The notes below the pieces were generated by a model. It worked only from the letters and a program-made list of their open reading frames with translations, searched no databases and was not told the DNA's origin. This document shows, piece by piece, positions 1 to 57,367 of a DNA stretch of 64,000 nucleotides. Origin of the DNA: Eledone cirrhosa (Eukaryota); contig OZ024742.1 of the NCBI GenBank assembly GCA_964016885.1, positions 66,340,001 to 66,404,000 on the forward strand, in the 5' to 3' direction. Numbering within the stretch: position 1 is the stretch's first letter; the number at the start of each line of letters is the position of its first letter. A program made the position numbers and the translations under genes.

Positions 1-1062
1 GCAGGTCTTTTTTTTCTCTCTCTCCTCTACAATTTCACAGAACTTACGTTCACTGAATTTACAGACTAGATCCCTTCTTCCTCCCGTTAGACCTGTACGG
101 AATTCCTTCCTTGCTCACATTCCAACCAGGTTTGATGGTCTTTATTCTCTCTCGTTCACGATTTCACCGAATTTATATTCATGGAAATTTGGGACTTGAC
201 TCCTTCATCCTCAATTTTCGTTGCTTCACCATATTTGTTTGTTTTACTCTCGTGTCCCCTTTATTTACGTGTTCCAACGACTTTTTTTAGCCGTTGCTCG
301 CACCAACCGGAGGTATATAGTCTTTAAAGCGATGAAATACCAATGATGGTTGGAAGATCACTGATGAAGGACTAACTTTATTCATATGTAACCCATTAGC
401 AACGACGTAGCACGTTTATTCTCATATTTACACATATTTTTTCCCTCGCTGTGACGCGTCTATTACGTTCTTACGGCTTCCTCTTTCTCTGTATCTTTAC
501 CCTCTCTAGCAGCCACTCTCTCTGTTAGCCTCTTCCTCACCCTTCACTCACTCATTCTCTGTTACTACCTCTCCTCCTCCTCCTTCTTCCCGTTTGACCT
601 GTGCGTAATTCATTTCTTTCGCACCCTTGGTCAGGCAGGTCCCTTTTTTTCTCTCTCTCGTCTACGATTTCACAGAACTTACGTTCACCGAATTCACAGA
701 CTAGATCCCTTCTTCCTCCCGTTAGACCTGTACGGAATTCCTTCCTTGCTCACATTCCAACCAGGTTTGATGGTCTTTATTCTCTCTCGTTCACGATTTC
801 ACCGAATTTATATTCATGGAAATTTGGGACTTGACTCCTTCATCCTCAATTTTCGTTGCTTCACCATCTTTGTTTGTTTTACTCTCGTGTCCCCTTTATT
901 TACGTGTCCCAACGACTTTTTTTAGCCGTTGCTCGCACCAACTGGAGGTATATGGTATTTAAAGCGAGGAAATACCAATGATGGTTGGAAGATCACTGAT
1001 GAAGGACTAACTTTATTCATATGTAACCCTTTAGCAACCACGCAGCACGTTTATTCTCATAT
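1..1062 (+). repeat. Direct tandem duplication, period about 635 bp (1-~428 repeated at 635-~1062); pLTR-like non-coding unit ending in (TA)n
   Basis: GCAGGTC...TCACAGAACTTACGTTCAC... at 1 and 635; copies stay colinear with scattered substitutions until the (TA)n at ~1062. Both contain GAAATACC...CTGATGA. Confidence 0.85.
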
Positions 1063-1252: not shown

Positions 1253-2173
<921 letters not shown>

Positions 2174-4487: not shown

Positions 4488-5237
4488 ATGAAATATATGG
4501 AGAATAGAAATGGCTGTGTAGTTGCTATTTAAAGTAACTTAAAATGCAGTGGGAATACGAAGAAAGCAAGAACAGGAGGGTGAGGGGTGTCATCATCAGT
4601 TGTCTACTGGGGGTCTAGGATATTTCTACGCTTTAAAGACAAGATACCACTTCACCCCAAGGCGTAAATAACTGGAAAAGTTATTGGAAAAACGAAGGAA
4701 AGAGGGAAGGAAAGCAAAGGGGGAGAAAAGAGAAACAATAACAAAACAACGAAAAAACCCCACAAACCGAGCAATATGCGAGCAACTATAGGTGGGAAAT
4801 CCAAGACCACTCGATAATAGAACTTAAATTCGAGACTGAGTAATCGAGAGACACCAGACACACGTCTGATGGCAGCAGTTGTAAGTATGACGAGAACTGC
4901 TAAACGGTCAGATGAGGGGGTGAAAGTGAGAGGGAGAAAAGGAGAGGAAGAAAGTGGAGTAAGAGTAGATAGGGAGAAAGGAAGGGGAAGAAAGAGGGAG
5001 GAGAGTAGAAGGTAGCGAAATAGGTAGGTAGAAGGGGGAGAAAAGAATGGCCACAGCGAAAAACATGATGAAATATATGGAGAATAGAAATGGCTGTGCA
5101 GTTGCTATTTAAGGTAACTTAAAATGCAGTTGGAATACGAAGAAAGCAAGAACAGGTGGTGTTATTGGTGGTGGTGGTGGGGGGGGGGGGTCCTCATCAG
5201 TTTGTCTACTGGGGGTCTAGGATATTTCTACGCTTTA
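4488..5237 (-). repeat. Partial direct tandem repeat, period about 580 bp (4488-4635 / ~5068-5237); pLTR-like
   Basis: ATGAAATATATGGAGAATAGAAATGGCTGTG...TCATCAGTT...GGATATTTCTACGCTTTA occurs twice. Shares the TAAAGCG..GAAATA...CTGATGA layout with the repeat at 1-1062. Confidence 0.8.
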
Positions 5238-5828
5238 TCCATTCATGTGGGCCTCTTCTAGATAGTTCATTGGGTGTTCAAATTATTATAAAGTTTTGAA
5301 TAGAAAATGTTTAATTAATATGAGTTCATAATTAAAATTTAGCGATCTGTTTATAGTATTATACTTGAAATATCAATATATCAATTGTTATTTCAATTCA
5401 GCTTTGAAACTGGAGCTGGCACGTTATACGAAATAAATATATTTGTTTTAGGTTTCTGATAACCTGAATATCACTGGTTCATGATTTTTACGATCATAGA
5501 ACATTTTTGGGCATATTTTCTTTGATATCGGGAAATAAAATGAGTAAATGTACTTTCATGGCATAGATAGGAGGCTGGATGATGTTCGTTGATGTAAAAT
5601 AATTAACTCTGTATGTTTCTATGAAATATAATTTACTAACCATAATCGACTAACATTTATTTCTGTCTGGTGGACATACCACCGTGTACATCCTTGATAG
5701 CAAGTAATGTATATTAGCAACACGGTACATTAATATCATCTGGCAGACACACACATATATACATATATATATATGTAAATTTCAGTCGTCACTCTCGTGT
5801 GCGGATATAAATGTTATTTATATATGTG

Positions 5829-22785: not shown

Positions 22786-23398
22786 TAATATATATATGTA
22801 TGTATATATATATATATATATATTAGTTTAGCGAGGTTTTTTATATGAAATCGTGTGTCGAAACAGATATTGTTATATTTGGGAAGGGTCATATTTGCGT
22901 AATATTGCCAGAATTAATAACAGAACACACTCACTGTTTGGTTGGTTTTCGCTTCTCGCTGTCTTTTATATCTGCGATCTAACTTACTCGGTCCTCAGTG
23001 TTGCCATTGACTGACCGGCGGTCAAAAATAATACAGATACAATATAGACACAAACACATATATATAGTTTACATAATTTACATAAATCTTTCGTTGCACA
23101 TCTGCAACATCGTCAGTGGTGTTATATTCATTGTTCCTCCTGTTGTGTTGTATGTCTACGCCATTTTTTTATTCAGTCTGTCTATATATTTATTTATTTA
23201 TTTGCTTGTTTGTTTATCTTATTTTATATTGTCTTCTTTGCGCATGCGTTTGCGTGTGTGTATAGTGTTATGTGTGATGTGTAACTAGTGTGTATAGTGT
23301 TGTGTCTGCTGGGTGACTAGTGTGTGTTTATGTGCTTGTTGTTATTGTGCTTGTGTATGTATTTATTTATCTTATTTTATTTTATTTTATTTACTTAT

Positions 23399-24739
23399 TT
23401 ATACTTCTCTTAGGTCAGTGTTGTTTGTTTGGGTGTTGTTGTTGTTCCACTCATTCTTTCTGTTTAGCTTTGGTCTTCTAATTACTATTTCACTGGCCTC
23501 TCTGATTTGCCTATCTGCTGGGTCATTCCTATGTTTAGATATTATTCTAATTTCTATGTTGTCTATGTTACCGTCATGTTGTTGTCTAGCATGTTCGTAT
23601 AGTACTGACCCGTTTTTTCGTCCTTTTAGTTCCCCCCAGTGTTGGTCTATCCTTTCACCTATGCTACGAGCTGTCTCACCTATGTATGTTGTTGTCATGT
23701 TTCTGCAAGTACCCTCTGTACATCTTATGCTATAGACTAGGTTTCTAGTTTTACAGTTTATCCGGGGGTTCACCTTACATATGATACATTTCCTATTGGT
23801 ACAGTGGGTTTTCTTAAAAGGGTAGGTTTTGCTGATCAGGGATTTTATGGTGGTTCCTGGCTTTTCTACCACCTTTATTTTTAAGTGGGTCTTTCTCAGG
23901 GCCTTTCTACACTGGTTAGCTAATTTCCCTCCAGGGGTGGCGTCCACAAACATGACACTCTGATATCTCTGGTTGTTGTACCATGATGTGGCCTTCCCTA
24001 TCTTATGTCTAGCCCTATCTAAGCTATTCCATGATTTGCTCCTGTATAGTGGGCAAATTCCTTTCATGTCCAGTTCTATGAGGGTCTTATACTTTTCCAT
24101 GGCTCCTTCGTATACTCTGACTCTGTCTCTTTGGTTATAGCCAGAGAACTGCATGCGGTTGATGAAGTGTTGGATGTGTCCTTCCATTTCTGTTGGGTCG
24201 CACATGCTGGACACATTCTTCATCACTCGTACCAAATCTGCGATCAGAATATTAAACTTAGCACTACTGGACATTGCTGAGTGTTTGAGTATCAGGTATT
24301 TGGAGGCCATGGGTTTAGCATAGTGTGAGTGGAGAATTTGGGCTCTCTCGTCTATAGTGTTAATCCAGAGTTCTGTGTCTAATACAAGTAGTCTATTGTT
24401 AGGGTGTTTGGAAGGGAAGTCGATAGTTACAGTTATACTCTGGTGTATGGAATTAGCTATCTGCTGGATGCTTTCCATCGTGCTACGTTCTAAATAAAAC
24501 TTGTTAGTGCTCTCTAGTGGGGGTGTTCTTATAACTATATTGATATCGTCTACATAGCAAGAGTACATGATGAGGTCTATGGAGCTTTCATTAAGGAGAT
24601 CTTTAAGTCTCCTTTCCCACCATACCATGAAAAGGTTGGCAACATCACCAGCTATGCTGACGCCGATGGCTGCTCCCTCGTTTTGGGTGTAGATTTTCTC
24701 ATTGAACTTAAATATGTGGTCCTTTAGGGTAGTTTTGAT
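23399..24739 (-). CDS. PLE polyprotein C-terminal part: RT motifs 4-7, thumb, Cys-rich linker, GIY-YIG endonuclease; open frame truncated at the 5' end
   Basis: The frame extends 37 codons upstream of the tracked ATG (IKTTLKDHIFKFNEKIYTQNEGAAIGVSIAGDVANLFM), then YVDD, LDTELW, HYAKPM, SGY, CTNRKCIIC, NLVY..C...C..YIGETAR..ERIDQH, EA, LN. Confidence 0.9.
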   Translation of the reverse strand: MKTTLKDHIFKFNEKIYTQNEGAAIGVSIAGDVANLFMVWWERRLKDLLNESSIDLIMYSCYVDDINIVIRTPPLESTNKFYLERSTMESIQQIANSIHQSITVTIDFPSKHPNNRLLVLDTELWINTIDERAQILHSHYAKPMASKYLILKHSAMSSSAKFNILIADLVRVMKNVSSMCDPTEMEGHIQHFINRMQFSGYNQRDRVRVYEGAMEKYKTLIELDMKGICPLYRSKSWNSLDRARHKIGKATSWYNNQRYQSVMFVDATPGGKLANQCRKALRKTHLKIKVVEKPGTTIKSLISKTYPFKKTHCTNRKCIICKVNPRINCKTRNLVYSIRCTEGTCRNMTTTYIGETARSIGERIDQHWGELKGRKNGSVLYEHARQQHDGNIDNIEIRIISKHRNDPADRQIREASEIVIRRPKLNRKNEWNNNNTQTNNTDLREV

Positions 24740-25100
24740 AAACTGTAAAACTAGAAACGTAGTCTATAGCATAAGATGTACAGAGGGTACTTGCAGAAAC
24801 ATGACAACAACATACATAGGTGAGACAGCTCGTAGCATAGGTGAAAGGATAGACCAACACTGGGGGGAACTAAAAGGACGAAAAAACGGGTCAGTACTAT
24901 ACGAACATGCTAGACAACAACATGACGGTAACATAGACAACATAGAAATTAGAATAATATCTAAACATAGGAATGACCCAGCAGATAGGCAAATCAGAGA
25001 GGCCAGTGAAATAGAAATTAGAAGACCAAAGCTAAACAGAAAGAATGAGTGGAACAACAACAACACCCAAACAAACAACACTGACCTAAGAGAAGTATAA
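24737..25100 (+). pseudogene. Inverted duplicate of the GIY-YIG coding segment
   Basis: INCKTRNVVYSIRC...YIGETARSIGERIDQH; differs from the minus-strand copy by two residues. Confidence 0.85.
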
Positions 25101-25621
25101 ATAAGTAAATAAAATAAAATAAAATAAGATAAATAAATACATACACAAGCACAATAACAACAAGCACATAAACACACACTAGTCACCCAGCAGACACAAC
25201 ACTATACATACTAGTCACACATCACACATAACACTATACACACACGCAAACGCATGCGCAAAGAAGACAAAATAAAATAAGATAAACAAGCAAATAAATA
25301 AATAAATATATAGACAGACTGAATAAAAAAAATGGCGTAGACATACAACACAACAGGAGGAACAATGAATATAACACCACTGACGATGTTGCAGGTGTGC
25401 AACGAAAGATTTATGTAAATTATGTAAACTATATATATGTGTTTGTGTCTATATTGTATCTGTATTATTTTTGACCGCCGGTCAGTCAATGGCAACATTG
25501 AGGACCGAGTAAGTTAGATCGCAGATATAAAAGACAGCGAGAAGCGAAAACCAACCAAACAGTGAGTGTGTTCTGTTATTAATTCTGGCAATATTACGCA
25601 AATATGACCCTCCCCAAATAT

Positions 25622-25755
<134 letters not shown>

Positions 25756-54377: not shown

Positions 54378-57367
54378 AAAATTGGTCGTTTTGGAAGCCT
54401 CATCAATGCAGATGGGTATATCTCAGGGTAACAGAATCAGGTGGTAATGAGAGAGATGTAAGAGGAAATGTAAAATGATACGTATAGGATGTAGCAGAAC
54501 GTAGGAAAGAGTGTAAAAATAATAACATGAGATAGAGTTACCTTGGAAGTGATTTAATTGTCCCTATATTTCGGATTTTGCATCCATGAACTGGGGGTTT
54601 TACGAGGGGGAAAGTTTTAGAGGAACAACACGTGGCCTCTGTTGTCTATCGTGTGTGTACAACTGAACTACTCTGTAGGGTGCCCGTGCGCGCGGAATAG
54701 CTGCGGCCAGACAAAGGTCGAGGTAGTTCCTCTGTACTAGAGTAGTGGGATGGTGATGTGTCAGTGCATACGCATCTTCGCTGTCAATTTCTTATATTCA
54801 GTCTTTGATACTGGCAGGTGTGTTGTTGTATTGGTAGTCTGCCTGATTGTTGTTTGTTTGTCGGTGGATGGTGGACACGCTATACACACAATAACAATCG
54901 TTCGATTGCTACTGTGTGTATTGTTGTTGTTTCATTTGTTTACACCAGCCATCTCGTCTCACTTCTCTCGGATCGGTGATTTATTTATGGTCCGAGGCTT
55001 CCTTGATTCTTAAAGTGCCAACGTTGCGTTCTGTCGCTAACACTGTGACGTCTTTGTTTCCGAATTTGGTTATGTGTTTCCGGAAAGACGAGGCCCTTGT
55101 GTTGACGTGCTCCTTGATCTGGACATGAAGTGGCCGGATGGTGCTACCGATGGAGAAGTCGTTGCACTTGTCACATTCTACCTTGTATACGACGTACGTG
55201 CGTAAGCAACAGTTCGTTTGGCGCATTGGACAGTTGCTGAGGGAACACGCGTCAACCAATTTATCGGGTTTCCTGGAGAGGCATCTCCGTAGGGAGGAGC
55301 CCGAGTGGGCCAAGTGGATGTCGAGGCCCTCTCTCCGTATGGCCCTGCGGATAGCATTGGTGGTTTTTTCGCCTAGGTGCGGGATTTTAAAGAAGCACTT
55401 GCCTTGGGTGTTTCTCTGCCTCTTGCGCCTGGTGTCTCTTACTCTGCTTGTAAATGATGCTGCGTATCCGTTCGTCTCCAGCACCCTGAGGAACCGCTTG
55501 GTATGGGCGACACTACACACGTGATCACTGCATCTATTTTTAATCCACGTGATCTCGTTCGTGATGTACCATCTTTTAGCACTGTTAGGGAGGACAGATT
55601 TGTAGTGGACGAACACGTCCCTGCTGGGTGCCTTGCGGTAGAAGCTGGTCTTGATCCCTCCCTGGTCCGTGATGTTGATTCGGAAGTCGAGGAGGGCAAG
55701 GGACCCCTCGTCGTTGGGGCGTTCAACACTGAAGTCAATATTCTCATCGATGTTGCTGAACAACTCGTAAATCCCGTTCGCCATCTCCTGGGAAGATGTG
55801 AGGATGAGGATGTCGTCCACGTATCTTGAGAAGAAGAGAACGGCGTTGGGGTGGCAGGTGTTGAGTGCATTGCGTTCCAGGCTGTCCATGTACGAGATCT
55901 AGCACACCCGACAGGCTTGAGCCCACGGGTAGTCCTGAGCTCTGTCGGTATGTTTGGTCGAGAAAATTGAAATATGTGTTGTCAACGACGACGGATAGGA
56001 GCTGGTGGATGTCAGTGAAGGTGAGCCCGAAGCAGTGTAGGTTGGTAGATTGAACACGTTCTATCAGTATATCAACGGCCGGGAGCGCCGGGACCGAAGT
56101 GTGAAGAGCGGCCACATCAAGGCTGAAGGCCAACCTGTTAGCCATTCGGGTGTCGGGATCCATTTGATGTAGGCGATCCAACACCACCTCGGAGCTGTTT
56201 AAGTGTCCCGGGAAGGTGTCCAGTAGGAGTTTAAGCATTCTGGCTAGGAGCCATGAAATTTTGTAGAGCGGTCCTTCCACGCTCGATACAATAGGCCTGA
56301 TCTTCAGGTCGGATCCCTGTTTGTGTGTTTTCACGAAGTGATAGAAGGCGGGTAGTCTGCTGTTCCTCGTGAGGACGTTGTTTCTAAGCTTCTTGGGGAG
56401 CTTCCGCCGGTCGCAATTGTTGCTCCAGGCAGCGTTGATGTGCTCCTCGATCTGCGCGGGAGTGATCCCTGTGACTTTAGAGTAGGGGCTGGCATCGTTA
56501 AGATGTTGGAGGGCTAGGGTGTTGTAGGCCTCTCTGCTTATGACGCAGAATTCTTTTCCTTTGTCGGAGGGGAGGTAGATGAGGTTCCTCGATTTTAGGT
56601 TGGAGAAAGTAGTGAGTTGAGATTTAGTTAGGTTGTGTGTTGTGCGTCTATGTGTGTGTTTATGTAGGATATCAGAGATGGAGTATTTCAACATGATGAG
56701 TTTAGTTTCGACTTCGTGGCTGGTGGGTTGTGGAGGGGGGGTGCAGTTGGTTGCCGTGGTGGTAAGTGGGGAACTCGAGGCGAGTTGAGTGGGTGCTGTC
56801 ATTTTCCATGGTTCTGTTGATGGCGGTCACCCATTTCAGTTGGTGAGCGGCTCGGCAGAAGTTGGTTTCGAAAGTTGAGTTCAACTCTGTTGTCGAGTCG
56901 CTGTGAGACGATGAACTTGGGTCCGAGGAGTAGAAGTTCCAGCTCGTCGTTCGTGAGGGTGCTGGTTAGGTCGGTGACAAGGTGCGTCGCATAGTTCAGG
57001 TGTGGCTCTGTGTTGGTGGATGCGGCGGTGGCAGTTGTTATGTTCTTGTTTTTTGTGGAGTTTAAGCAAGGTCCACTCATATTTCTGCTTGAGTTTTGTT
57101 TCGTGTTGGACTCTGGAGTGGTAGCACTGGTCGATTGCTTTTGTGGTTTTAAGGAGCAAGTCGCCGGGTATTAGTGTTAAGCGATGTGTATTTTTACACA
57201 CTTTCCTACGTTCTTCTACACCCTATACGTATCATTCTACACTTCCTCTTACATCTCTCTCATTACCACCTGATTCTGTTACCCGGAGATTTACTTATCT
57301 GTATTGTTGACGCTTCCAAAACGACCAATCTTATTATTCCACAATGCTTCAAGCAAACTTTAACACT

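Follow-up and report, generated by a model that had tools for sequence, protein, structure and literature searches.

The stretch of DNA analysed here (the window) comprises 64,000 nucleotides of the Eledone cirrhosa genome (GCA_964016885.1, contig OZ024742.1, positions 66,340,001 to 66,404,000, forward strand). Its first bases (1-1060, plus strand) hold a non-coding repeat of Penelope type, arranged as a partial tandem of about 1.7 units with a period of 635 bp and ending in (TA)n. The repeat starts about 19 bases left of the window, and an inverted, 5'-truncated copy is found just left of the window (L001:574-1131). The two copies within the window are 95.9% identical over 438 bases, and the repeat has a GC content of 43%. 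A DNA search of the 3.0-Gb genome with the repeat returned 1,450 candidates, 40 of which were scored, at 96-100% identity. At 29 loci we observed partial tandems with variable 5' truncation and often an inverted truncated copy upstream. Half of the examined copies of the motif described below (35/70) run into (TA)n, 19 of them at positions 383-384, nine at 422-423 and seven elsewhere. The 'tail' (383-425, plus strand) thus has two preferred insertion 3' ends some 40 bases apart, about 65 and 105 bases beyond the predicted cut. Units measure 635 bp here and approximately 515-705 bp in related subfamilies.

The original prediction of a pLTR-like repeat is borne out by the 635-bp tandem unit, the fixed 3' ends, the (TA)n target, the 5' truncation and the inverted copies; a tail, a preference for (TA)n and inverted copies are described for Penelope-like and Naiad elements (PMC8557442), and the anole Penelope element has two internal start sites downstream of its hammerhead (PMC11167929). 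A non-coding tandem unit with one ribozyme motif per unit and PLE-type geometry is a mark of non-autonomous PLE retrozymes, and the repeat shows all of these; the type I hammerhead of non-LTR retrozymes is absent, as the blocks of its motif run in the order S-G-C. An ORF with an N-terminal GIY-YIG, a CxC motif and a C-terminal reverse transcriptase was found neither in the repeat nor beside the sampled copies, so that the repeat is at most a non-autonomous Naiad derivative.

The window contains further Penelope-type sequences. At 1300-2040 lies a fragment of another such repeat, with a canonical type I hammerhead-like core at about 1530-1560 (minus strand) and an inverted partial copy at about 1920-2040; its core also follows PLE ORFs in L260-L284. 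An element at 22867-25630 encodes reverse transcriptase plus GIY-YIG at the C terminus in one ORF (23399-24763, minus strand), flanked by inverted repeats that each carry a type I hammerhead-like core. A broken Penelope-type ORF of a different family, again with reverse transcriptase and GIY-YIG, is located at 54981-56826 on the minus strand. Pfam returned no family for three PLE-like ORFs of the window. A link between the repeat and the PLE ORFs at L024, L035 and L075 was considered and rejected, since the latter share no more than the (TA)n sites with it: their endonuclease is C-terminal, and they come with a type I hammerhead of their own. Elsewhere in the genome (L108:2400-8000; G000:C1:51772400-51778000), an array of units of about 428 bp, 12 copies of which were seen, bears a hammerhead-like core of canonical order in each unit and is probably an ordinary retrozyme.

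The motif was originally noticed at 303-380 of the window; all segments listed for it were confirmed in place, and all recur 635 bases on. Read along the plus strand, it begins with the 5' strand of a closing helix, P0 (271-274, pairing with 369-372; 273 is a private C>T change that leaves a wobble). A hairpin, Px (275-296, with 275-281 paired to 290-296), stands between P0 and the leader and is missing from subfamilies B and J. The leader (298-302) supplies the 5' strand of stem II, 298-301 pairing with 329-332. It is followed by the 5' strand of the outer helix (303-308), which rests on covariation and RNAalifold, serves as the NC stem of a k-turn and is the topological equivalent of the stem I-II interaction helix of type SGC. 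The sequence then gives the non-bulged strand of the k-turn (309-311; 3n G, 2n G, 1n A). Stem III, seen in the pairing of the subfamilies, contributes its 5' strand together with U16.1 (316) and H17 (317) at 312-317, and cleavage is predicted, by analogy, between 317 and 318. The stem I strand 3' of the predicted site (318-324), identified by covariation, leads into a linker (325-328), the 3' strand of stem II (329-332) and position 11.1 (333), after which come G12, A13, A14 and A15.1 with the 3' strand of stem III (334-341). The k-turn bulge AAU and positions 1b-3b (G, A, U) occupy 342-347. The 3' strand of the outer helix (348-353) passes straight into the second stem I strand (354-360), which is followed by the CUGAUGA core (C3-A9, 361-367), position 10.1 (368, partner 333) and the 3' strand of P0 (369-372).

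A second copy of the whole motif lies at 906-1007 (plus strand; predicted site 952/953) and differs by two private changes, at 957 in stem I and at 968, immediately 5' of GAAA. The first copy likewise has a private mismatch in its stem I, A319.C359, which reflects a G>A change at 319: G stands there in nearly all aligned copies, giving a stem I of seven pairs, and in about 465,500 of 466,810 of the summed depth of run X1 (the runs are contig sets of unrecorded type). The spacing pattern UH - GAAA - GA - CUGANGA occurs three times in the window (316-367, 951-1002 and, on the minus strand, 4593-4644) and in none of 100 shuffles of it. An Rfam scan of the window yielded no match at the gathering threshold. 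Two copies of the motif from subfamily F, about 602 bases apart, are present on the minus strand at 4560-4700 and 5170-5290; the former passes our stem descriptor, and the latter is truncated on its 5' side.

How widespread is this arrangement? Three discovery patterns, which asked only for order and spacing and never for complementarity, while requiring the core and the GA after the bulge, matched the genome 941, 5,438 and 5,653 times, against 95, nine and zero matches of the reversed-pattern controls; the letters following GAAA differ between the three sets, which therefore do not overlap. Because these patterns had required core and GA, the search was repeated with both left free (A group only), giving 11,221 matches and none in the control. 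The genome thus harbours at least 11,221 related motifs. Sequences for comparison were drawn from part of the first 100 places listed for each pattern, all on contig C1. Of 15 seed groups defined, the 11 with at least three copies were counted as subfamilies; counts over these 11 leave aside subfamily D2, the four seed groups with fewer than three copies and 23 regex hits outside the groups. A descriptor of the SGC stems scored 137 hits in 87 of 196 loci from the genome and none on reversed sequence. None of 93 metagenome stretches and none of nine viral stretches, retrieved with one narrow pattern each, passed it. A long tandem array of SGC-motif units of about 513 bp was seen at G000:C1:81650000-81696000 (L318); some of its units share an altered k-turn position 1b, which has spread among them, so that amplification at the DNA level does occur.

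Covariation supports stem III, stem I and the outer helix. Taken together with the leader helix, these four helices are paired in 87.3% of 418 cells across 19 natural copies of divergent subfamilies, and 19 of the 22 pairs change on both sides. No shuffle among 500 reached this level, and slid registers gave 30-49%; since the subfamilies are related, such shuffle counts are not probabilities and overstate independence. All six pairs of the outer helix change on both sides (92.1% paired over the 19 copies; 62/66 cells among the 11 subfamily majorities), and five close subfamilies of the A group have five different outer helices, each fully complementary. All seven pairs of stem I likewise change on both sides. 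Among the subfamily majorities, stem I is paired in 70 of 77 cells, its first six pairs in 65/66 and the weak seventh in 5/11, and stem III is paired in 43/44. When the 2,850 possible 4-pair helices within 296-380 were scanned, 11 were at least 90% paired over the subfamily majorities, and the top eight by covariation belong to the outer helix, stem I and stem III. RNAalifold, unaided, predicts the outer helix and stem III. The original prediction of stems I and III is upheld, as both covary across copies and subfamilies, and the fold as a whole is almost certainly real.

The leader-made stem II, the closing helix P0 and the hairpin Px have weaker support. P0 and Px are paired in 81.6% and 75.9% of cells, in an alignment whose register is off in this part for subfamilies B, C1 and D; searched for each subfamily separately, P0 comprises 4-7 pairs in most groups and three in F. 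The helices are short, with duplex energies of -3.3 kcal/mol for stem III and -3.6 kcal/mol for stem II. Two alternative helices were examined and rejected: 318-324 with 368-374 shows no covariation (385 of 500 shuffles as high), and 349-353 with 372-376 shows none either (48.4% paired). The energy of 318-324 in the window subfamily is -5.4 with 368-374 and -5.3 with its stem I partner.

Every position of the hammerhead core is in place: C3 U4 G5 A6 N7 G8 A9, G12 A13 A14, A15.1-U16.1 and H17. The U16.1-A15.1 pair is invariant in 19/19 copies. With the core left free in the search, CUGANGA was, by eye, intact in 96 and GAAA in 95 of the first 100 matches listed, and k-turn positions 1b/2b differed in one. 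The core deviations among these matches are scattered over differing subfamily backgrounds, none recurring within one. Within the core only N7 varies (C in 11 of these 100 matches), while many variants recur in the stems. Among these matches the core is better conserved than its flanks, its changes being rare and scattered.

Stem II was the acknowledged weak point of the original prediction, which allowed it at most one pair next to the core. That holds for the strand after CUGANGA, which gives the core at most one pair, 368:333 (A-U in four of the 11 subfamilies, G-U in three, G-C in two and unpaired in two), so that the motif lacks the stem II after CUGANGA of a conventional hammerhead. It does not hold for the stem as a whole, the rest of which is provided by the leader, 298-301 with 329-332. 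The leader helix is paired in 46 of 55 cells among the 11 subfamily majorities, 45 of them Watson-Crick, and in 77.9% over the 19 copies. The 10.1-11.1 pair has switched from A-U to G-C in a close subfamily; position 11.1 finds no partner after the core in subfamilies D and F, and none on either side in subfamily A5 (two copies). The strand before GAAA is very variable in subfamily B (27 variants in 42 copies). The distal stem II proposed originally, UAAAG/CUUUA, fared poorly, with a duplex energy of -0.6 kcal/mol, 28 of 53 cells Watson-Crick across subfamilies and one covarying pair among the three of its five pairs that were tested on the alignment. A stem II made by a strand 5' of the motif is a new feature, if one with weaker support than stems I and III and the outer helix.

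The loop GGA / AAU-GAU, which lies between the outer helix and stem III, conforms to the definition of a standard k-turn given by Huang and Lilley 2016 (PMC5061560), with a 3-nt bulge, G1b.A1n and A2b.G2n; C-G at -1b,-1n and U at L3 are also shared. The C stem differs from that of the standard k-turn in being hammerhead stem III. The bulge of three nucleotides is found in 11/11 subfamilies, A1n.G1b in 10/11 and G2n.A2b in 7/11, and the full standard k-turn is present in the window subfamily and in 7/11 subfamilies overall. Four of the 11 have U at 2n, which is given as the commonest non-standard form in PMC5061560; three of these are Kt-23-like, and one (D) is fully Watson-Crick with a plain 3-nt bulge. 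The window subfamily has G at 3n, a class of k-turn reported to fold in magnesium alone (PMC4382518). A pattern forbidding G at 1b found 898 matches (control, 44). The first 100 listed are mostly scattered damaged copies, together with one local array and a family, J, with a 3x4 loop devoid of GA pairs, in which P0, the leader, stems I and III and the outer helix all persist; its description rests on three copies with an intact 5' part.

The notion of a k-turn bridging the two stems is thus supported for the window subfamily, where a standard k-turn joins stem III to a helix ending beside stem I. It does not extend to a requirement for the k-turn, since D manages with Watson-Crick pairs and a bulge and J with a 3x4 loop. 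Judged from these sequences, the bend is conserved and the k-turn is its commonest form, because family J and subfamily D use other loops; the kinking itself is predicted. A further new feature is that both strands of stem III pass through a bend into the outer helix. A literature search, with most subscription papers outside its coverage, turned up no report of a k-turn in a natural hammerhead.

Is the topology itself new? The cleavage strand, the GAAA strand and the CUGANGA strand follow one another as S-G-C, which is none of the circular orders of types I, II and III (C-G-S, G-S-C and S-C-G). The original prediction of a core in non-circularly permuted, pseudoknotted order is accordingly correct. 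Its claim of an undescribed topology has to be withdrawn, because the S-G-C permutation was published in 2023 as type SGC by Eckert et al. (PMC10085705). Type-SGC hammerheads are reported there from metatranscriptomes only; RNAs with the same three blocks cut at the analogous site, as monomers in vitro, at 0.007-0.19 per minute, and need the interaction helix. The HRIMA-1 motif and its variants share with the present form the S-G-C order, the full core, a short linker between stems I and II, and an additional helix, placed immediately ahead of the stem I strand, by which these two stems are tied (here 303-308/348-353). In the present form four pairs, a kink and nine pair-steps would have to span the distance, and Eckert et al. 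note the same geometric puzzle; the word "kink" is absent from their main text.

The present form departs from type SGC in its block C, which is not an uninterrupted run of stem I strand, CUGANGA and stem II strand. In the SGC-1 and SGC-2 oligos, the stem II strand and the partner of the interaction helix follow CUGAUGA, whereas here both precede the cleavage strand. Unlike in type SGC, both strands of stem III are connected to the extra helix by way of the bend, and P0 closes the ends. Given this connectivity, with a leader-made stem II and a split block C, the window form would correspond to type SGC circularly permuted, with the opening placed inside block C, a block that the type-SGC paper assumes to be indivisible. 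The search pattern published there demands at least two pairs of stem II right after CUGAUGAG or CUGAUGAUG and therefore cannot match the present form. Non-LTR retrozymes and Penelope pLTR hammerheads (PMC7229834; bioRxiv 10.64898/2026.07.22.740005; PMC11167929) resemble the repeat in being non-coding tandem repeats of animals, with the same 43% GC, and in having one hammerhead per unit shortly before the tail and the reverse-transcription start sites; they differ in their type I hammerhead and in units of about 150-450 bp, as opposed to S-G-C order and 635 bp. The 2026 retrozyme preprint describes a search for type I only. We found no earlier description of the present form in the literature covered (hammerhead permutation, Penelope, Naiad, k-turn and octopus, with most subscription papers outside coverage). 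The type-SGC order is hence of a known kind; the detached stem II strand, the bend and the occurrence at Naiad 3' ends are new.

Naiads were reported to be without canonical hammerheads (Craig et al. 2021, PMC8557442), and the same paper marks some of them 'HHR_core' or, in eight cases, 'HHR_half_core', without a structure. We read by eye the last 330-420 bases of 49 of the 54 Naiad consensus sequences in its supplement text. In nine of the 49 3' ends, the blocks run in S-G-C order and stems I and III can be read together with an outer helix. For Naiad_Obim and Ovul we also read Px, a leader helix of six pairs and a standard k-turn whose 3b.3n pair is U.U; these Octopus ends match the window motif in the order of hairpin, leader, k-turn and core. 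Amil, Aacu and Anas, from near-identical corals, have P0, Px and a bulge further out. Naiad-3_Chem and Naiad-2_Movir also have S-G-C ends, as do Esco, with an uncertain leader, and Bfor, with only two pairs in stem I. At these Naiad ends the base preceding GAAA has its partner in the leader rather than in the base that follows the core. The nine represent about six independent lineages in three phyla (ctenophore, cnidarians and cephalopods), and in other Naiads the motif may lie further upstream than the stretch read.

The window repeat further shares with Naiads, as described in PMC8557442, the (TA)n target, partial tandems with inverted copies, a tail of 30-40 bp and a T-rich 3' region, and differs in having no ORF. 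Naiad coding sequence was sought in this genome with an exact Octopus-type motif and a reverse transcriptase motif pattern, neither of which matched; an endonuclease pattern had 40 matches, and 25/25 inspected were of the C-terminal type. No Naiad hallmark motif stands beside the sampled copies. Cephalopod Naiads are remnants according to PMC8557442. We consider it likely, from these shared ends, that the repeat originates from Naiad 3' ends, and the motif is also likely to be the ribozyme that Naiads were reported to lack, its cleavage being predicted. Other kinds of 3' end were seen by eye in the same supplement: twister-like in Naiad-1_Movir and several bivalve Naiads, a canonical-order hammerhead with a long stem II in nematode Naiads, and another conserved motif common to oyster and hemichordate Naiads. 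Naiads may thus swap ribozyme classes.

What would the motif do? We think it probable that the 635-bp repeat encodes a hammerhead-type RNA, knotted in S-G-C order, that cuts its own transcript at 317/318, and we hold it equally probable that it does so as a monomer and without protein. The wiring would be that of the validated type-SGC ribozyme if its ends were joined and the circle then opened between A9 and stem II. A second three-way junction would arise where stem I, stem II and the outer helix meet at their far ends, with linkers of 0, 0-1 and 3-4 bases, and would take the place of the contact between loops I and II in ordinary hammerheads. Because both strands tie stem III to the outer helix, the RNA must turn sharply there, presumably through the standard k-turn in the window subfamily and other bulges or loops elsewhere. 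Cutting of tandem transcripts would release monomers of 635 nt, perhaps as circles, for a Penelope-type reverse transcriptase to copy in trans into (TA)n DNA, starting about 65 and 105 bases past the cut.

Could the fold be hammerhead-derived and yet inactive alone? It might cut only with the element's own or a k-turn-binding protein, or serve as that protein's recognition structure near the reverse-transcription starts. The anole Penelope hammerhead offers a precedent, in that cleavage needed protein and insertion in vitro did not need cleavage (PMC11167929). U.U at 3b.3n in 4/11 subfamilies, as in box C/D k-turns that require L7Ae-type proteins, and the competing 318-324/368-374 pairing of the window subfamily point the same way. 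This reading is nonetheless unlikely, as the UH site and every position of the catalytic core persist amid changing surroundings, and subfamilies without a k-turn exist, so that a k-turn-binding protein is not a general requirement.

Somewhat less probable still is a strand-swapped dimer, in which the same pairs form between two motifs of a tandem transcript rather than within a single knotted chain. Covariation is blind to this difference, the copies do occur in tandems, such dimers are reported for minimal Penelope hammerheads, and amphibian retrozyme hammerheads cut better as dimers (PMC7229834). Yet the outer helix and stem III make up a local hairpin, type-SGC monomers cleave in vitro (PMC10085705), and linker lengths are nearly fixed across subfamilies, as one compact fold would give.

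A third alternative would make the hammerhead likeness incidental, the motif being either a k-turn RNA, box C/D snoRNA-like or of another kind, or a chance arrangement amplified as satellite DNA. It could appeal to the box D- and box C-like words that CUGAUGA contains and to the spread of the 1b change in the L318 array, and is very improbable given that stems I and III flank exactly UH, GAAA and CUGANGA, that U16.1-A15.1 is invariant in the 19 copies, that N7 alone varies in the core, that Rfam has no match in the window and that reversed-pattern controls give 0-95 matches against thousands.

The self-cutting S-G-C hammerhead remains the reading we prefer. In its broadest form, which we favour with some reserve, it holds that nature has wired the hammerhead in one more way, separating CUGANGA from its stem II strand and folding stem III back through a k-turn or an equivalent; that the resulting RNA is catalytically active and is the 3' ribozyme from which those of many Naiads, from ctenophores to cephalopods, descend; and that it gave rise to more than ten thousand retrozyme-like copies in this genome while escaping every descriptor-based search. 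If true, this would be the first non-circularly permuted hammerhead with covariation support in the genome of a cellular organism, and a natural ribozyme using a k-turn, and it would show that CUGANGA can, contrary to what has been assumed, be parted from its stem II strand. The closed, k-turn-braced form would be well suited to providing the SGC crystal structure that is still missing, and L7Ae-type proteins might serve to switch it. The finding matters for the topology of hammerheads, the biology of k-turns and the mobility of Naiads: it would revise the view that Naiads spread without hammerheads, and hence that of hammerheads as dispensable passengers of Penelope elements.
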